Source: a virus
IMG/VR virus record: IMGVR_UViG_3300040801_001492
Location: 37,446-101,445 of that record
Reading direction: 5' to 3' (one strand)
Length of the DNA stretch: 64,000 nt
Position numbers and translations under genes: made by a program. Shown piece by piece: positions 10,663 to 26,299 of the stretch (position 1 is the stretch's first letter; each line of letters begins with the position of its first letter). The notes beneath the pieces were generated by a model, which ran no database searches, was not told the DNA's origin, and worked only from the letters and a program-made list of their open reading frames with translations.

Positions 10663-11451
10663 ATGAAAATTCCGAAGATTGGTATTCCATTTTGGAGAAT
10701 GGGAGATAATAGTTTAGGTGTAACATTGCCTTACTATACATATTTTGAACGTTTTGGTTATATTGTAGTGCTTAATCCCATGGTTGAACCAAATCAAGAA
10801 TTATATACTGATATTGACCTATTAGTATTGCCTGGTGGTGCTGATATACTACCAGAAAGGTATAATCATATGCCTAGCCTGTTTACAGGTAAGCCGGACT
10901 TGATAAAAGATTATTTTGATATGCATGTACTTCCTAGGTATATTGCTGATACAGATATTCCTATATTTGGTATATGTAGAGGTTTTCAATCTATAGCTGT
11001 ACATTTTGGATATCCATTAATACAGGATATGTATCATGAAACTAATAAACCCGATAAGAGGTGGGAAAATGTACATAAGCTGTCTGTTAATTCAGCTTTT
11101 GTAGAAGAGATGGCAAAATTTAACGAAAAAATAGAAGATAATTCTGATAAAATATATGATTCACTATATAATATTAAATTACCTTTTAATCGTGAATATG
11201 ACAAAATTAAGAAAAGAAATCTTATTACTTTTTCAGTTAATTCATTGCACCATCAGGCTGTATCTAGTACACAGATAGAAGAAGATAAATCTTTTAATAT
11301 TATAGCCAAGTATCAAGGTGCTTTTGCTCCTTTTATTGAAGCAATGGTTTCTGAAGATAGCAGAATAGCAGGAGTACAATATCATCCTGAAGAGCTGTTT
11401 GACGAACCAATAGCTAAGTATTTAATTTATAAATTATTATATAAAGTATGA
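10663..11451 (+). CDS. class I glutamine amidotransferase / peptidase C26 (PuuD-like gamma-glutamyl hydrolase)
   Basis: LPGGADI, nucleophile elbow GICRGFQ, VNSLHHQAV, GVQYHPE (Cys-His-Glu triad). Confidence 0.9.
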   Translation: MKIPKIGIPFWRMGDNSLGVTLPYYTYFERFGYIVVLNPMVEPNQELYTDIDLLVLPGGADILPERYNHMPSLFTGKPDLIKDYFDMHVLPRYIADTDIPIFGICRGFQSIAVHFGYPLIQDMYHETNKPDKRWENVHKLSVNSAFVEEMAKFNEKIEDNSDKIYDSLYNIKLPFNREYDKIKKRNLITFSVNSLHHQAVSSTQIEEDKSFNIIAKYQGAFAPFIEAMVSEDSRIAGVQYHPEELFDEPIAKYLIYKLLYKV

Positions 11452-11825
11452 AAAAAGAAAGAATTTTTGTTTATGGTACCTTACTAGAAGGTTGTGGTAA
11501 TCATCAATATTATCTGCGTGATGCTAAGAAACTAGGCGAACATATAACAGATTCACAATTTACTATGCTACATTTAGGTGGTTTTCCTGGAGTTATAGGA
11601 ATAGGTAATACAGCTATTAGAGGTGAAGTATATGAGATTACTGAAAATGAGTTTAGGGATATAGATGGTTTAGAAGGATATAATCCTAATAATCCTTCTT
11701 ATGGTCTGTATGATAGAACACAAATAAAAACTCCATGGGGTAATGCATGGATATACCTATATAATCATCGTGATAATCATCATTTTAATAAAATAACCTC
11801 AGGATCATGGAGAAACAAAGACTAA
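11448..11825 (+). CDS. gamma-glutamyl(amine) cyclotransferase (AIG2/YtfP/BtrG-like)
   Basis: IFVYGTL, GEVYEI, catalytic IDGLEG, YDR, AWIY. Confidence 0.9.
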   Translation: MKKERIFVYGTLLEGCGNHQYYLRDAKKLGEHITDSQFTMLHLGGFPGVIGIGNTAIRGEVYEITENEFRDIDGLEGYNPNNPSYGLYDRTQIKTPWGNAWIYLYNHRDNHHFNKITSGSWRNKD

Positions 11826-12601
11826 GAAAACGCCGTGTACAGATACGTACAAGAAATCATTCAGCTAGACCATTAAGGGGTAATATAATGGCTGACCGTT
11901 CAGCTATTGTACGATTAGGTTCACTTACTACATTAGAGGATGCCTATACAAGAAAGAAAAATCTTAATAATATTGTTGAGATAAATACTGTGGAAGCTGT
12001 ACAGAACAGTAGAGATAAATTTGCTATGAAAAAATGTTTTGATAATGCAAAAATCTCTCATGCAGACTATTACATTGATTCTACTAAAATAGATGATAGT
12101 ATAGATTATCCTATTGTAGCTAAACGTAGATTTGGTTTTAAAGGTAGAGGTATGTATCTACTATTTTCCAGAGGTGAATTTTTAAACTTTATGGAAAAGC
12201 AATATGATAAAGACTACTTCTTTGAAAAATTCTATAATTATGCACGTGAATATAGGCTACATATATGTAATGGTCAAATATTTATGGTGTGGCGTAAGTT
12301 ACGTAAGAAAGATGCTGAAGAAAGGTGGTATTTTAATGATTCTAACTGTAACTGGGTAAGTGAACAGCATGAGTTATTTAACAAACCAGTTAACTGGAAA
12401 GATATATGTAAGCATAGTATAAAGGCAATGAAAGCTGTTGGATTAGATTTAGGAGCTGTTGATGTGAGGGTACAATCTGATAAGCACGAAACACCGTTAT
12501 TTATTATTTGCGAAGTAAATAGTGCTCCTGCCTTAGGTAATAGGGGCATTGAAGAATATAAAAAACAAATCCAAAATTTTATTGATAATTATGAAAAATG
12601 A
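11807..12601 (+). CDS. ATP-grasp peptide ligase (RimK-like)
   Basis: N...DK, YPIVAK..G.KGRG, EYRLH, LDLGAVD, EVNSAP. Confidence 0.88.
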   Translation: MEKQRLRKRRVQIRTRNHSARPLRGNIMADRSAIVRLGSLTTLEDAYTRKKNLNNIVEINTVEAVQNSRDKFAMKKCFDNAKISHADYYIDSTKIDDSIDYPIVAKRRFGFKGRGMYLLFSRGEFLNFMEKQYDKDYFFEKFYNYAREYRLHICNGQIFMVWRKLRKKDAEERWYFNDSNCNWVSEQHELFNKPVNWKDICKHSIKAMKAVGLDLGAVDVRVQSDKHETPLFIICEVNSAPALGNRGIEEYKKQIQNFIDNYEK

Positions 12602-13487
12602 TATTTTTATTTTTGATAGTATAGGATCAGACCCTGAGTTTTTCTTAACTGATGAGAATGGTAAATATGTTTCTGGTGCTTTAGTCACTACAGGAGGTAA
12701 GCGTAAGCCGGAAAAATTAGATAAATTAGGTTTTAATATCTTTACTGATAATCTGGCAGTAGAAGGTAATATACCACCAGCATCAACATTTGATAAGTTT
12801 AATAATAATATGCTTAAGCTTATTGATTATATAGGTGAAAGAGCAGAACAGAAGAACCTTAGTGTAGCTCATGTTGGTCAGGCTGAGTTTAGTACAGAAG
12901 ATTGTAATAGTATACAAGGACAGGAATTTGCCTGCTCAGCATCATTATATGCATGGCAGGGTATATATTATAAAACATTTGATGCTGTATCTATCAATGC
13001 CTGTCGTACTACAGATTTTTCTAGAGATAGAATGAGAACAGCTGGTTTTCATATTCATATAGGCTATCATGTAGAAAATAAAACTTTTACTGATCCTTTA
13101 GTATATGACTTACTAGTGGCTAAAATATTTGACCTGTTTGTTAGCTTACCTACTCTTGAGATACAGAATAAAGAAACGTTCAGAGAAGAAAATTTTGGTT
13201 TATTAGGTAACTTTAGAAGCAAAAGATATGGTGTTGAATGTAGGTCGTTAAGCGGTTATTTTACTCATCCTACTTATTATAAATGGCTGTGGACACAGAT
13301 ACAACACATGTTTGAATATATCAACTCATTAAGTAAAGATGAGCTTACAGAGCTTCTGGAACTGCATATTTTTGATGCTCCTAATAAAGCTATGGTAAAA
13401 CAAGAGTTTGAGAAATTTTCACCAGAGACTCCTGATATGATACATCACTTTTCTAATTTAATTAATATTAATACTTATGCAATATAA
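12591..13487 (+). CDS. phiEco32-like COOH-NH2 ligase type 2 (glutamine synthetase/GCS fold)
   Basis: IGSDPEFFL, DNLAVEGN, RTAGFHIHIG, FRSKRYGVECRSLS; ATG at 12591. Confidence 0.88.
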   Translation: MKNDIFIFDSIGSDPEFFLTDENGKYVSGALVTTGGKRKPEKLDKLGFNIFTDNLAVEGNIPPASTFDKFNNNMLKLIDYIGERAEQKNLSVAHVGQAEFSTEDCNSIQGQEFACSASLYAWQGIYYKTFDAVSINACRTTDFSRDRMRTAGFHIHIGYHVENKTFTDPLVYDLLVAKIFDLFVSLPTLEIQNKETFREENFGLLGNFRSKRYGVECRSLSGYFTHPTYYKWLWTQIQHMFEYINSLSKDELTELLELHIFDAPNKAMVKQEFEKFSPETPDMIHHFSNLININTYAI

Positions 13488-15471
13488 TAAATACAACCTT
13501 ATTCTTCTTGTTATTGTTGTAATCTTCTATATCATGTTGCCTGAAGATATAACAGCTGCGTGTGGTTTATTTGCTTTCTTCGGTTCTAATCCTACCAAAT
13601 ATTTTAGCTGGAAAGATTTTAAGATATTAGGTGTTTTTAATGATGCCAGAGGTAATGATGCGTGCGGTATAACAACAAACGATAATGTACAGAAATATTG
13701 GCATCAGGGTATTGTTGAGTTTAAGGATGCTATAATAAAGAAAGAGATAATACACAATTTTACTGTTAAAGACCATATCTTAGGACATACAAGAAAAGCA
13801 TCTAGTGGAGGTAATTGTATAGACACAGCACAACCTTTAATATTCTATAAAAACGATGGCCCCCCATTATCGAAAGCATATAAAGATGAAAATTATAGGC
13901 TTTGGTTGAAAAAACAGCCTAAGAAAAGTATTGTTTTTAGTGGTATACATAATGGTACAATACATAATATAGATAAGTTAGCAGAAAAATATCATGTTAA
14001 AACGAAAGATAAGAATGACACTGCTATGTTATTTGAGATACTGTTTAAAGGACATTATGAAGTACTAACTGAATATGAAGGTACAGCATCATTAGTTTTT
14101 TATGATTACTATACCGAACAGATATATATCTGGAGAGGCGAATCCTTGGCTTACAGCAGTAGTGTTGCTGTTTCTGAAGAAAGACCATTATTTTATTATG
14201 CCCCTGCTAAGAATAATTTCTATTTATCTTCTTTAAAAAACTCATTACTATTTATAGGAGCTCCTGAGAACCATGCAATGGAAGTACCTTCTAATACTCT
14301 GTTTGTATATCATAAAGGAAAACTGGTAAGTAATGTAGCTTATGATAGGTCGAAAGCTAAACAGGTAGTTACATATTCTTCTACAGGTAATGCATGGAAT
14401 TACAGAGATAGTAATAATTCATGGGATAGGTATTCTGCAAGACATTATACGCCTGCTATACAAGGATTTCATAATAATAAGTATGGTAATAATAATACAA
14501 CAGATAAGCTACGTAAAGATGATACTAAGCGTCTTTATCTTGTAACATCTGGTTCATTCTCTAAAGGAGCTTATAGGCTAATAAATGAGAATGTAGCAGC
14601 TATTGCAATAAATAACCCACGCAGATTAGCTTTTTGTAAAGGTAGATATTGGTATGGTAATAATTTAGCACATGGTCTATTGCCTGTTAATACTTTAGGT
14701 ATCATACCACATAAAAAACAATTACCTCTAGCTATTTCTAAAGCTAAACTATATGGGTTTATTGAAGGTGTACTGGTAGAAGATTTAGCATCATATTTTA
14801 TTATGCAAGATACTTATAATAACATATTAGCAGATTTAATTGAAGCAGATAAGATTGATATAAATGATATTATTCTAAAAGAGAGGGATTTACTAGAAAA
14901 TTTAGCTTTCTTTACTGACCATTTTACTGATAGTATAGTATCAGTAAGTGAGATTGAAGCAGTTAAGTTTTTAAACAATCGTAATGAATATCATTATTAT
15001 ACAGGTGTTACACATCCTAAATTCTCTAATAGGAAATATGCTTTTGAAAATGGTGACCTTAATTACATAGAATATATGAGTAATATATCTTATGATCTTA
15101 ACCATACACAGGAAGATGTTACTGAAGTATTGGATTATATAGAAACACCTATGGAATTTTATGCAGAGAAAGGACAAGCTGAATCAGATATAGATGCTAT
15201 AGGTAGAATACTTATACAACAAAAAGACAAAGATATACCTATTTCTTTCTTTACTAAAGTTTTAAGAGGTGAAATAGAATATGATATAAATACTAGTCTT
15301 AAAGAAGAATTTCTTTTAGCTAAATCAATATATTATAAAACATTCTATTCACATCTAAAATTTAATAGATGTGATAAAGACCAGTGTAAAGACTGTTCTT
15401 ATTATGAGAAATATTTAGAATATTGTATACGTTGTGTACAAGAATCAAGTTTAAAAATTGTTACAAAATAA
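13477..15471 (+). CDS. class II (Ntn) glutamine amidotransferase with N-terminal leader and long C-terminal extension
   Basis: CGLF at aa 29, RGNDACG, GHTRKAS, HNGTI, NDT; Cys-rich C-terminus. Confidence 0.85.
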   Translation: MQYNKYNLILLVIVVIFYIMLPEDITAACGLFAFFGSNPTKYFSWKDFKILGVFNDARGNDACGITTNDNVQKYWHQGIVEFKDAIIKKEIIHNFTVKDHILGHTRKASSGGNCIDTAQPLIFYKNDGPPLSKAYKDENYRLWLKKQPKKSIVFSGIHNGTIHNIDKLAEKYHVKTKDKNDTAMLFEILFKGHYEVLTEYEGTASLVFYDYYTEQIYIWRGESLAYSSSVAVSEERPLFYYAPAKNNFYLSSLKNSLLFIGAPENHAMEVPSNTLFVYHKGKLVSNVAYDRSKAKQVVTYSSTGNAWNYRDSNNSWDRYSARHYTPAIQGFHNNKYGNNNTTDKLRKDDTKRLYLVTSGSFSKGAYRLINENVAAIAINNPRRLAFCKGRYWYGNNLAHGLLPVNTLGIIPHKKQLPLAISKAKLYGFIEGVLVEDLASYFIMQDTYNNILADLIEADKIDINDIILKERDLLENLAFFTDHFTDSIVSVSEIEAVKFLNNRNEYHYYTGVTHPKFSNRKYAFENGDLNYIEYMSNISYDLNHTQEDVTEVLDYIETPMEFYAEKGQAESDIDAIGRILIQQKDKDIPISFFTKVLRGEIEYDINTSLKEEFLLAKSIYYKTFYSHLKFNRCDKDQCKDCSYYEKYLEYCIRCVQESSLKIVTK

Positions 15472-15477
15472 AATATA

Positions 15478-16950
15478 ATGACAGCATATACAAAAGATAT
15501 AGACGCAGTAGTTACTACCGTACAAGGAAAGAAAACCTTACGCAAATATTGTCGTTATATAGGCAAAGAGTATCATGAGATTAATGTAGATTGTTTTAAA
15601 ATTAATGGTACATGGTATAGAACTAAAGGTGATAAAATTATTTATGATTATGAACTATATAAATGGAGACTTAAATCAGATGCTCCTTTTGTAAGAGGTG
15701 TAATTGATATTCTACCTAATAATGAATATCAATACGGTCATTTTACTCCTTTGAAAGGAAAAAATATTGATATTATGGTAGGTAAATCATTATATAGAAT
15801 AATGACTGGTATAGATATATCATTGATAGAAAAAGGTAGCCTTATTGAAGGTCGTAATGGTGTCTTCTATTCAGCTGAAATAAAAGATTCTTTTAAAAAA
15901 GAATTAGACCAGTATGTTAATATTGGTGGAAGACAAGCATCTTTTTATAATATATCATGGGATTATAGCTCTGAATATAATATACCTGAATTTCAAAATG
16001 TATTTAGTAATACAAAACTAAAAGGTAAACTATATAATAATTATTATAATTATCTAAAATATACTTTCGGGATTGAGTTTGAAACAGATAATGGTGCTAT
16101 TCCTGAGAGGTATCTTAGACCGATGGGTTTAATACCTTGTAGAGATGGTAGTATAGGTGGTTTCGAATATGTTACTGTACCGTTATATCAGGAGAAAGGT
16201 ATACAGGCTGTACATGAGCACTGTAAATTATTATCTTATTTTTGTGTTATCAATAAATATAATTCCGTACATCTTCATCTAGGAGGTTATCCTAGAACAA
16301 AAGAACATGTTGTGGGATTATATAGAATGTTAACATTTTTACAGGACGATATATATAAATTATTTCCTTCTGCATATAGAAATACTAGTTTATTTAAAAG
16401 ACGTTCTTATTGTGAGCCTTTAGCTTATGTACCAGGTTCGCAAGATATTGATAACTCATTAAGTAATATTATTGCAAGATTAGGAGGACGTTATGATGGT
16501 ACTTTACCAGAAGGTCAACATCATCCTATGGATTTTACAGGTGAACATAAGTGGCAAATTAGTCCTAGATATAAAATAATAAATCTTATTCCTCTAATCT
16601 GGGGTAATAGAGGTACTGTCGAGTTTAGAGTACACACACCTACTATAGATTTTAATAAAGTTATTTATTGGTTATTTATATGTTCAGCTATTTTACAATA
16701 TGCAGAACAAAAATATATGAAATTTACTGTACCAACAAATAATTTTCAAAAATCAGTATCGTTATCTAAGATTATGAAAACTGTTTATCCTCTTGATATA
16801 GCTAATAAGATTATTGACTATATAGATGTTAGGACAAAATACTATGCAAATGGTAATGATCCTTCAGGTGAACACGAAGTATTAGATGAGACTAAGCTTA
16901 GAACACTTCCTGTTAATAATATTAACCCTTTAATTAGAGTATATGAATAG
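15478..16950 (+). CDS. putative amidoligase (Amidoligase_2, GCS/GS fold)
   Basis: TFGIEFET, RDGSIGGFEYVTVPL, SVHLHLG, RYKIINL, GTVEFR. Confidence 0.88.
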   Translation: MTAYTKDIDAVVTTVQGKKTLRKYCRYIGKEYHEINVDCFKINGTWYRTKGDKIIYDYELYKWRLKSDAPFVRGVIDILPNNEYQYGHFTPLKGKNIDIMVGKSLYRIMTGIDISLIEKGSLIEGRNGVFYSAEIKDSFKKELDQYVNIGGRQASFYNISWDYSSEYNIPEFQNVFSNTKLKGKLYNNYYNYLKYTFGIEFETDNGAIPERYLRPMGLIPCRDGSIGGFEYVTVPLYQEKGIQAVHEHCKLLSYFCVINKYNSVHLHLGGYPRTKEHVVGLYRMLTFLQDDIYKLFPSAYRNTSLFKRRSYCEPLAYVPGSQDIDNSLSNIIARLGGRYDGTLPEGQHHPMDFTGEHKWQISPRYKIINLIPLIWGNRGTVEFRVHTPTIDFNKVIYWLFICSAILQYAEQKYMKFTVPTNNFQKSVSLSKIMKTVYPLDIANKIIDYIDVRTKYYANGNDPSGEHEVLDETKLRTLPVNNINPLIRVYE

Positions 16951-25861: not shown

Positions 25862-26299
25862 ATGAAAAAACTATTATTAACATTAGCAATTATTGCCTTG
25901 CCTTTGATGGGGTATGGGCAGATTATAAAAGTAGATGATGAATCTCATTTGGTTGTTGACAGTACCACATACAACCCAAAGACCAAGACTTTCTCTTTTT
26001 GGAGTGCGAACCAAGAATATTTAGTGATTAAAAAAGAGAAAACCACCTTTGTTGTTGATACCGTTGGCTCATCATGGAAGTATTATCATGGTGATCGTAT
26101 TATTCTCCAAGACCTAATAGACTATCAAGAGTATTGCTATAATGATAGTACTGTTAGCTGGGAATATCAATTTGAAGAGATTGATAAAGGAAGCGGAGTT
26201 GGGTTTACAAACTATAACAAACCAAAGAAAAGAGTTGTTAGGCACAAAATACCAACTTTCAACGGCTTTATTGAATGGATGAAAAATAAAGAGAAATGA
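25862..26299 (+). CDS. secreted protein (SPI signal, N-terminal Gln)
   Basis: MKKLLLTLAIIALPLMGYG|Q, matches the Bacteroidota Q-rule. Confidence 0.6.
   Translation: MKKLLLTLAIIALPLMGYGQIIKVDDESHLVVDSTTYNPKTKTFSFWSANQEYLVIKKEKTTFVVDTVGSSWKYYHGDRIILQDLIDYQEYCYNDSTVSWEYQFEEIDKGSGVGFTNYNKPKKRVVRHKIPTFNGFIEWMKNKEK

Follow-up and report, generated by a model that had tools for sequence, protein, structure and literature searches.

The crAss-like phage that carries the window, a stretch of 64,000 nucleotides, encodes an enzyme of the glutamine-amidotransferase type that is made with a 28-residue leader masking its catalytic cysteine. The open reading frame lies on the plus strand at 13477-15471, as do its two neighbouring genes, and its 664 codons are opened by an ATG at 13477 that places 28 residues ahead of Cys29. 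The Ntn active site of the class II amidotransferase type needs a free alpha-amino group on that cysteine. In our preferred reading, to which we give an even chance of being correct, the protein would be exported by the Sec pathway and cleaved after Ala28.

The catalytic domain has a class II (Ntn) glutamine-amidotransferase fold that extends from residue 29 to about residue 300 (13561-14376) and includes R58, N159-G160 and D181. In a phmmer search residues 29-185 aligned to positions 1-154 of the mature PurF protein of B. subtilis (1ao0/1gph), with Cys29 on Cys1, and the Pfam GATase_6 profile gave 34.4 bits where the cut-off is 27. The AF2 model of the protein (pLDDT 85) matched PurF, AsnB and GlmS in Foldseek with E values of 1e-9 to 1e-7. 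Across 73 aligned homologues C29-G30, R58-G59, H158-N159-G160 and D181 are invariant. We regard R58, N159-G160 and D181 as the probable equivalents of R26, N101-G102 and D127 in PurF, an assignment based on motif and position, the pairwise alignment being unreliable near an insertion. Cys29, whose TGT codon is at 13561-13563, occupies the position of the Ntn nucleophile according to the PurF alignment and its invariance in homologues, and would be the N-terminal residue of the mature enzyme. With this Cys, the Arg-Gly, HNG and Asp motifs, the modelled fold and the HMM score, the domain has the predicted characteristics of the class II (PurF-type) enzymes.

The leader is encoded by codons 1-28 (13477-13560) and has three parts. 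Its n-region, M1-N7 (13477-13497), contains one Lys and is the weakest basic n-region of its clade, in which the mean is 2.24 Lys/Arg. The hydrophobic core that follows, L8-L21 (13498-13539), is 14 residues long by hydropathy and coincides with a modelled helix: residues 2-20 are helical in the AF2 model with pLDDT values of 79-88, and the Kyte-Doolittle value of 3.17 for a 15-mer in the core is the highest within the replication module. The c-region, P22-A28 (13540-13560), has seven residues, beginning with Pro and then Glu-Asp; its -3 residue is Thr, its -1 residue is Ala, and the predicted cleavage site falls between A28 and C29. No other hydrophobic segment is present anywhere in the protein. 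The preferred start codon (Met1, 13477-13479) has an AT-rich, Shine-Dalgarno-free context like those of other gene starts in the window, homologues start at the equivalent position, and the ATG overlaps the stop (13485-13487) of the upstream COOH-NH2 ligase gene by 11 nt. The only further in-frame starts upstream of Cys29 are ATG 13534 (Met20) and TTG 13537; the codons GCT GCG TGT stand at 13555-13563 and the one directly before Cys29 is not a start codon. An earlier note had read the leader (beginning MQYNKYN), the GCT GCG TGT junction and the lack of a start codon abutting the Cys in just this way, and its view that the gene encodes an Ntn amidotransferase with its catalytic Cys behind a leader is borne out by the alignment to Cys1 of PurF, the GATase_6 score, the fold match and the invariant sites.

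Leaders of this kind are widespread among the homologues. A profile search returned 981 clusters at E<=1e-30, and we sampled the family as 168 proteins, made up of the best 150 of the profile search and the homologues from the first search, taking representatives with less than 50% mutual identity. Approximately 70% of these proteins (about 118) have a hydrophobic leader that abuts the Cys, and approximately 20% start Met-Cys; the leader was found in 21 of the 30 proteins of the window clade and in 97 of the 138 from the wider family. The same layout is present in 66 DNA loci, taken from IMG/VR and metagenomes, that were inspected independently of gene callers, and its recurrence in both samples indicates that it did not arise by chance. 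Upstream of the Cys codon there are 27-63 open codons in leader-type genes compared with 1-13 in most Met-Cys genes. The ATG before the hydrophobic stretch is often the only start (L004, L010, L011, L037, L040, L048 and L067), so the leader must be translated in such relatives. Leaderless proteins account for 33 of 138 elsewhere in the family and for none of 30 in the window clade, where no DNA locus places an ATG immediately ahead of the Cys codon, and in that clade the leader appears to be obligatory. The question raised in the earlier note of whether homologues keep the hydrophobic leader can therefore be answered in the affirmative at both the protein and the DNA level. The finding that it had named as fatal to its proposal, translation from the internal Met combined with a hydrophobic stretch that is not conserved, was not made, since the stretch is conserved and the leader is necessarily translated in relatives.

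The family has two classes of leader that keep the same register and differ in the distribution of charge. Among the 25 distinct DNA-level leaders of the window clade, with starts chosen conservatively, Lys/Arg stand at 2.24 in the n-region versus 0.24 in the c-region, the n-region having more in 20 leaders and the c-region in one, while Asp/Glu in the c-region stand at 1.2. Seventeen of the leaders have Ala at -1 and eight have Gly; at -3, Ile is found in 16, Ser in five and Thr in four. The core has about 15 residues, or 19-20 in some cases, and the c-region has 7-9. An n-region rich in Lys/Arg combined with an acidic c-region, and with Ala/Gly at -1 and Ile/Ser/Thr at -3, makes up the pattern predicted for Sec and signal peptidase I, as called here by a script that applies the positive-inside and (-3,-1) rules. 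The window leader has the n-region, core, c-region and -3/-1 residues of a signal peptide, and suitable -1 and -3 residues are present in 25 of 25 clade leaders. In the wider family the charges lie on the other side, with Lys/Arg at 0.20 before the core versus 1.84 after it and more after it in 91 of 97 leaders; most have a Lys-Pro-Lys motif following the helix and no N-terminal charge. In 62 of the 97 the -1 position is taken by Asn, Tyr, Phe, Gln or Met (Asn and Tyr being common), which fails the signal peptidase I rule. By the same script these leaders fit a predicted N-out/C-in anchor and are not suited to signal peptidase I. The Pro at -7 is retained in both classes, with Lys-Pro-Lys becoming Pro-Glu-Asp in the window clade. 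The charge bias of the window clade is found in 20 of its 25 leaders versus three of 97 in the wider family. The Fisher tests used in the analysis ignore phylogeny.

In the preferred reading, the pre-enzyme would start at ATG 13477 and its first 28 residues would serve as a Sec-type signal peptide. The leader would direct the nascent chain to the inner membrane, translocation of the protein would follow, and host signal peptidase I would cut between Ala28 and Cys29, with self-cleavage as a possible backup. The cut would free the alpha-amino group that the Ntn active site requires. The mature enzyme, with its two domains, would then work on the periplasmic side of the envelope as a glutaminase or as a hydrolase of gamma-glutamyl amides. 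Since cleavage would free the amino group of Cys29, activation of the enzyme would be coupled to its export. We infer the membrane insertion, the export, the cleaving enzyme and the substrate. The first of two options in the earlier note, a 28-residue membrane or export leader cut at T-A-A/C, is thus backed as far as sequence allows by a stretch that is conserved and a leader that is translated in relatives. A link from the leader to an envelope substrate is plausible for the window clade only, because the wider-family leaders have the opposite predicted topology and leaderless cytoplasmic forms exist.

The confinement of signal-peptide anatomy to the window clade and the apparently obligatory leader there argue for export, and the CxxC tail would suit disulfides as well as a zinc site. 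Several properties of the family and its gene neighbourhood point the other way. Leaderless forms, which are necessarily cytoplasmic, and N-out/C-in forms are found in the same cassette, and a periplasmic member would alter the logic of the pathway; the partner enzymes are ATP-dependent ligases that have no signals. The mature proteins are Cys-rich with CxxC pairs resembling zinc ribbons, which is a cytoplasmic trait, and the n-region in the window has just its one Lys. Basal members of the clade whose leader is still N-out (P0020, P0044, P0046 and P0047) already possess small -1 residues, so the evidence from this position is not independent of ancestry. We rate at a little under even the broader proposal that one crAss-like clade turned an Ntn pro-sequence into a true Sec signal peptide, such that host signal peptidase I creates the catalytic N-terminal Cys and the periplasmic enzyme targets an amide of the envelope, such as a gamma-glutamyl or amidated position in peptidoglycan, while sister clades use an inverted, self-cleaving tether.

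It is possible, although we hold this more tentatively, that the protein is a membrane-associated zymogen that cleaves itself and works in the cytoplasm. The leader would then only target or tether it, the thiol of Cys29 would attack the Ala28-Cys29 bond in an N-to-S acyl shift, and the enzyme would be released on the side of the membrane where glutamine, ATP and the partner ligases are located. An N-to-S acyl shift is known in other Ntn hydrolases and has been proposed for the propeptides of PurF and GltB. Since it extends the N-terminus and stops right at the nucleophile, the leader has the form of a self-processing propeptide, and self-cleavage is the parsimonious mechanism for the family as a whole: the wider-family leaders need processing of another kind because 62 of the 97 have -1 residues that signal peptidase I would not accept and because their charge bias places the catalytic domain inside. 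A large hydrophobic residue at -2 is common to both classes (Leu in 87 of 97 in the wider family; Leu, Tyr, Ile, Met or Trp in 24 of 25 in the clade), and in the wider family the spacing from leader to Cys is fixed (27 +/- 2 residues, Lys occupying -8). Met-Cys forms that lack a leader occur here and there over the tree, forcing at least 18 changes, which argues that the mature enzyme functions in the cytoplasm. The cassette and the C-terminal domain are identical between the two classes, and the Cys-rich mature proteins with their zinc-ribbon-like tail are likewise consistent with self-cleavage there. However, such a mechanism leaves unexplained the reversal of charge in the window clade (20 of 25 versus three of 97), the acidic c-region and the absence of leaderless members. 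Moreover, a leader with two to six Lys/Arg before the core cannot insert N-out, and the standard rules would have the domain translocated in any case.

We consider it improbable that the leader is an uncleaved signal-anchor, behind which Cys29 would stay internal and the domain would either be inactive as an Ntn enzyme or serve in some other chemistry, such as binding or scaffolding. The sequence itself gives no proof of cleavage and some clade leaders have cores of 19-20 residues, but the mean core of about 15 residues is short for a stable anchor, the catalytic positions C29, R58, N159-G160 and D181 are invariant in the 73 homologues, and in leaderless forms the Cys becomes residue 1 once the Met is removed.

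Translation from Met20 (ATG 13534-13536), the second option in the earlier note, seems to us more doubtful again. It would yield a hydrophilic propeptide of nine residues (MLPEDITAA), comparable to the 11-residue one of B. subtilis PurF, the hydrophobic codons upstream being untranslated. This ATG is in frame, nine codons ahead of the Cys, and a gene caller chose it as the start in the public gene call (P0002, 645 aa). However, Met20 is lacking in the closest homologue, P0003 (51% identity), and in the remainder of the clade; in relatives no start codon separates the hydrophobic core from the Cys; and the short called starts of P0008, P0014, P0016, P0019 and P0038 conceal longer leaders that are basic and hydrophobic (L093, L097, L005, L103 and L105). 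An overlap like that of ATG 13477 with the upstream stop is usual in this operon, and the AT-rich context of this codon is that of the other starts. The nine-residue propeptide is disfavoured on these grounds, starts of this type being gene-caller truncations: callers shorten leaders in genes of this family, as they did at Met20 here. A near-cognate start directly before the Cys was also considered and was rejected, the -1 codon being GCG here and GCN or GGN in the clade. A lipoprotein signal, with Cys29 diacylglycerol-modified and the leader removed by signal peptidase II, is scarcely credible: Ala/Gly at -1 followed by Cys looks superficially like a lipobox and a true lipoprotein is encoded elsewhere in the phage (326-715), but because of their charged c-regions none of the leaders, whether from the clade (0 of 22) or the wider family (0 of 95), satisfies a PROSITE-style lipobox rule that this control lipoprotein passes, and acylation of the thiol would destroy the conserved nucleophile.

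PurF of B. subtilis (glutamine PRPP amidotransferase) and GltB, the large subunit of glutamate synthase, share the Ntn fold and the position of the catalytic Cys with the window enzyme and have, like it, an N-terminal extension that ends at the nucleophile and whose removal is needed for activity. The propeptide has 11 residues in PurF and about 36-42 in GltB and is in both cases hydrophilic and cytoplasmic, whereas the extension in the window is a predicted membrane-inserting hydrophobic helix with signal-peptide anatomy; the acceptor-side domain is also unrelated to theirs, being neither a PRTase nor a synthase. The same two-domain enzyme is encoded by Cellulophaga phage phi14:2 (Crassvirales) as gp051, annotated as 'glucosamine-fructose-6-phosphate aminotransferase', at the same cassette position between primase and Amidoligase_2, and this is the only cultured phage found to have a leader-type gene. 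Its hydrophobic leader of 31 residues abuts the Cys but is of the opposite class, its N-terminus being uncharged, its helix followed by Lys-Lys-Arg-Arg and its -1 residue Ser, and it is predicted to be N-out/C-in. The amidotransferases of the uncultured crAss-like phage cr108_1 and of the phiEco32 type are the same enzyme in the same cassette, with a Cys that must become residue 1, but they have no leader and exposure of the Cys is handled at the level of translation, cr108_1 starting Met-Cys. The gamma-glutamyltranspeptidase of E. coli, a Sec-exported periplasmic Ntn hydrolase that cleaves gamma-glutamyl amide bonds, resembles the export model of the window enzyme, although it belongs to another Ntn family and its Thr nucleophile is exposed by internal autoproteolysis and not by removal of a signal peptide.

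Among the open reading frames of 10663-16950, as classified with Pfam and PHROG, the GAT-II gene is flanked by genes for a COOH-NH2 ligase, an Amidoligase_2 protein, an ATP-grasp ligase, a gamma-glutamyl cyclotransferase and a C26/class I amidotransferase, and this synteny is retained in 84 related loci. Iyer, Abhiman, Burroughs and Aravind are said to have predicted in 2009 (Mol Biosyst 5:1636) a phage cassette of amidoligase, GAT-II, ATP-grasp and gamma-glutamyl cyclotransferase genes, which the gene set in the window matches. In later papers the predicted role of the cassette is cited as being cell-wall modification or the exclusion of superinfection (PMC10580990, PMC11318856). The searchable literature, Iyer et al. 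(2009) aside, does not mention a leader on the GAT-II enzyme of the cassette, and for penicillin V acylases a literature search for a Cys exposed by removal of a signal peptide yielded nothing usable. The immediate neighbours, the phiEco32-type COOH-NH2 ligase gene upstream (12549-13487) and the Amidoligase_2 gene downstream (15478-16950), encode no hydrophobic segment, and with no hydrophobic or signal sequences in the other cassette proteins the leader is the only hydrophobic segment of the cassette. The two-domain enzyme occupies the same six-gene cassette in its leaderless and in its N-out/C-in forms. A second membrane segment in the leaderless forms, which would favour a function at the membrane, was sought and was found in none of the classes.

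Ntn amidotransferases are described in textbooks as cytoplasmic enzymes in which the nucleophile is exposed by removal of the Met or of a short soluble propeptide. The large phage family represented by the 981 clusters (E<=1e-30) mostly hides its nucleophile behind a predicted membrane-inserting helix, and the window clade has remodelled that helix into an apparent export signal. If export is true, it would provide the first localisation, or physical, clue to the target of a widespread amidoligase/gamma-glutamyl cassette, whose substrate has to our knowledge never been found and has been an unsolved problem since 2009. It would also represent a new way to couple the activation of a zymogen with membrane targeting, and an exported member of this fold would be the first of which we are aware. 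Because gene callers routinely shorten these genes, and the public call of the window gene starts at Met20, database entries understate the leader.

Beyond the catalytic domain, a variable linker of low confidence (residues 302-345, 14380-14511; pLDDT <50, in a gappy and unconserved block of the alignment) leads to a family-specific C-terminal domain (14512-15468) that was modelled with a pLDDT of 85 and a pTM of 0.87. This domain had no match in Pfam or PHROGs and a profile search of the PDB was empty; the best E value from Foldseek against the PDB was 1.3, the best Z score from VIA-align wide was 2.1, and the ESM Atlas gave no usable match. A BFVD search found the domain in cr108_1 and phi14:2, with no other matches. 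Amidotransferase (rather than hydrolase) activity is putative, the C-terminal domain being unlike any known synthase or acceptor domain. The mature proteins of the window clade are rich in Cys (mean 11.8), and a CxxC...CxxC tail, formed in the window enzyme by C637, C640, C650 and C653 (15385-15435), is present in 26 of 30 clade members versus 16 of 138 proteins elsewhere in the family. To judge from its spacing, this tail may be suited to disulfides and is equally compatible with a zinc site.

The open reading frame at 13477-15471 (plus strand) lies in a segment of a roughly 101-kb crAss-like phage genome that is AT-rich (GC about 30%), and it encodes a 664-residue protein. Exactly as the earlier note had described, a leader runs straight into a cysteine. 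Its n-region (M1-N7) contains one Lys, its hydrophobic core spans 14 residues (L8-L21), and its c-region (P22-A28, Pro-Glu-Asp...Thr-Ala-Ala) ends right before Cys29 (TGT, 13561-13563). Residues 29-185 align with mature B. subtilis PurF residues 1-154, Cys29 falling on Cys1 (phmmer), and the Pfam GATase_6 score exceeds its threshold. The AF2 model (pLDDT 85) places a helix at residues 2-20, a compact domain at 29-300, a disordered linker at 302-345 and then a second compact domain; in Foldseek the 29-300 domain matches PurF, asparagine synthetase and GlmS (E ~1e-9). C29, R58-G59, H158-N159-G160 and D181 are invariant across 73 homologues. By every sequence and structural measure used, the 29-300 domain is assigned to the class II amidotransferase fold, with predicted ammonia transfer or mere hydrolysis, and Cys29 to the Ntn nucleophile position. 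The active site looks intact and, because an Ntn site requires a free Cys alpha-amine, residues 1-28 would have to be removed. Propeptides adjoining the nucleophile are known in PurF and GltB but are soluble, whereas this leader is hydrophobic; periplasmic Ntn hydrolases such as gamma-glutamyltranspeptidase are also known, yet these come from other families, and internal autoproteolysis is what uncovers their nucleophile. The literature searched, the founding 2009 paper apart, yielded no account of such a leader, hydrophobic or signal-like, in these phage proteins.

The C-terminal domain (residues 346-664; window 14512-15468) is a confident independent fold (pLDDT 85, pTM 0.87) that resembles no solved structure (best Foldseek E 1.3, best VIA-align Z 2.1), has no match in Pfam, PHROG or Atlas, and was found again only in homologous phage proteins (cr108_1, phi14:2). 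It may represent an undescribed fold, and is likely to be the substrate-binding half of the enzyme.

The earlier note had proposed asking whether homologues keep the leader, and most do. A word-index search gave 31 homologues and a full profile search 981 clusters at E<=1e-30; among 168 proteins from the former and from the best 150 of the 981 clusters, in which the catalytic Cys was placed by motif, 118 carry a hydrophobic leader (about 22-46 residues) that stops right at the Cys, 33 begin with Met-Cys and the remaining 17 have short or odd N-termini. Walking upstream from the Cys codon in DNA (75 IMG/VR and 72 metagenome loci), we met a stop mostly within 1-13 codons in Met-Cys genes and 27-63 open codons in leader-type genes, where the ATG immediately preceding the hydrophobic stretch is often the sole start. 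On these reading frames, the leader is judged to be translated. Leader and Met-Cys forms numbered 29 versus 46 in IMG/VR and 37 versus 35 in metagenomes, both sets being redundant in human-gut contigs. Short database N-termini were gene-caller truncations in all five cases checked against DNA (P0014/L097, P0016/L005, P0019/L103, P0038/L105, P0008/L093). Called starts lie systematically at ATG, GTG or TTG within or after the core (P0002, P0008, P0010, P0014-P0016, P0019, P0037, P0038), so databases hide the leader. Between close relatives (L057, L058, L060, L076/L079) leader DNA is far better conserved than mature-domain DNA, synonymous sites included: codon differences were 1/28 in the leader versus 37/100 in the first mature codons for L057/L058, and 0/30 versus 12/100 for L076/L079. 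Such a bias suggests that the nucleotides themselves are under additional constraint, for example as a translation initiation region or recombination boundary.

Two classes of leader occur. In the wider family its length is nearly constant (27 +/- 2) and the hydrophobic run begins at the very start, followed by Lys at -8, Pro or Lys at -7, Lys at -6, Leu at -2 (87/97) and Asn, Tyr, Ser or Ala at -1. In raw counts that ignore phylogeny, as do all charge and -1 figures here, Lys/Arg averages 0.20 ahead of the core against 1.84 downstream, the downstream side being the richer in 91/97; by the positive-inside rule this bias predicts an N-out/C-in tether. The -1 residue is Asn, Tyr, Phe, Gln or Met in 62/97, which excludes signal peptidase I as the processing enzyme there, and self-cleavage is the economical explanation. 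N-out leaders also carry Asn near position 3, Lys-Pro-Lys exactly 8-6 residues ahead of the Cys with Leu at -2, and, in 35/95, His inside the run (e.g. L037:5977-6057, L048:5920-6000); so strict a design suggests that the cleaved peptide, or its docking, is functional in itself.

The window clade comprises 31 rows nested within the family (SH-like support 95; 99 for the nine-row subclade holding the window protein) in a quick FastTree tree with midpoint root. Across its 25 distinct DNA-level leaders, with starts chosen conservatively, Lys/Arg averages 2.24 ahead of the core against 0.24 downstream (richer ahead in 20/25, downstream in 1/25), the c-region averages 1.2 Asp/Glu, and every leader has Ala or Gly at -1 and Ile, Ser or Thr at -3. 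In the same register as the wider family, Pro -7 is kept and Lys-Pro-Lys becomes Pro-Glu-Asp. Because small residues at -1 are seen as well in basal members of the clade whose leaders are still N-out, this feature is older than the charge reversal. No leaderless form was seen among 30 clade proteins or at any clade DNA locus, versus 24% elsewhere.

A primase and an exonuclease/RNR/PolA block flank a cassette of six genes, in which this gene comes fifth: a C26/class I amidotransferase (10663-11448), a gamma-glutamyl cyclotransferase (11448-11822), a RimK-like ATP-grasp ligase (11807-12598), a phiEco32-type COOH-NH2 ligase (12549-13484), the leader-bearing gene and an Amidoligase_2 (15478-16947). 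The gene set is that of the phage cassette reportedly predicted by computation in Iyer et al. 2009. In clade relatives an extra gene-sized gap of about 1-1.4 kb separates the ATP-grasp and COOH-NH2 ligase genes (L004:3815-5098, L005:3682-5057, L006:4131-5078); in the window, which lacks it, the two overlap at 12549-12598. None of the other cassette proteins has a hydrophobic segment. Later papers (PMC10580990, PMC11318856) go no further than naming cell-wall modification or superinfection exclusion as the possible role of the cassette.

For the window clade we lean, with belief and doubt evenly balanced, towards export with cleavage by signal peptidase I, because this clade alone combines three independent Sec signal-peptide hallmarks and its leader is seemingly obligatory. 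Self-cleavage yielding a cytoplasmic enzyme is possible, if clearly less probable. In its favour, the mature enzyme is alike everywhere, leaderless cr108_1 and N-out phi14:2 (gp051) share the C-terminal domain, and the cassette is common to all three classes, with ATP-dependent partners; leaderless forms are dispersed over the tree (at least 18 forced changes; FastTree, midpoint root), and proteins of the clade are rich in Cys and end in a CxxC...CxxC tail resembling a zinc ribbon. Export and cytoplasmic self-cleavage are compatible as to the cutting agent and differ in the enzyme's final location. An uncleaved anchor is improbable. Still more so is a start at Met20, from which the earlier note had, as one of two options, derived a nine-residue propeptide: the public 645-residue call beginning there (P0002) is the same kind of truncation as those checked. 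A lipoprotein signal can practically be dismissed, as every leader of both classes fails the lipobox rule.

Besides ATG 13477, the only in-frame starts are ATG 13534 (Met20) and TTG 13537. A Shine-Dalgarno-like motif precedes just 3/41 gene starts across the window; starts lie within A/T-rich tracts, often as ATG AAA, in keeping with a Bacteroidota host. With the window Shine-Dalgarno-free in this sense, Met1 and Met20 cannot be told apart as starts by their ribosome-binding sites.

Other predicted export signals occur in the window. A small plus-strand frame (326-715) has a textbook lipoprotein signal: its n-region has Lys-Lys, the core is hydrophobic and the lipobox closes with Ile-Gly-Cys. 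The acidic residues after that Cys resemble the Bacteroidota surface-lipoprotein export signal, and the product could serve in superinfection exclusion or be a surface protein. Another (25862-26299, plus strand) has a classical signal peptide with Gln after the likely cleavage site (...Gly-Tyr-Gly/Gln). Under the Bacteroidota 'Q-rule', Gln follows the cleavage site in signal peptidase I substrates, so this residue fits a Bacteroidota host.
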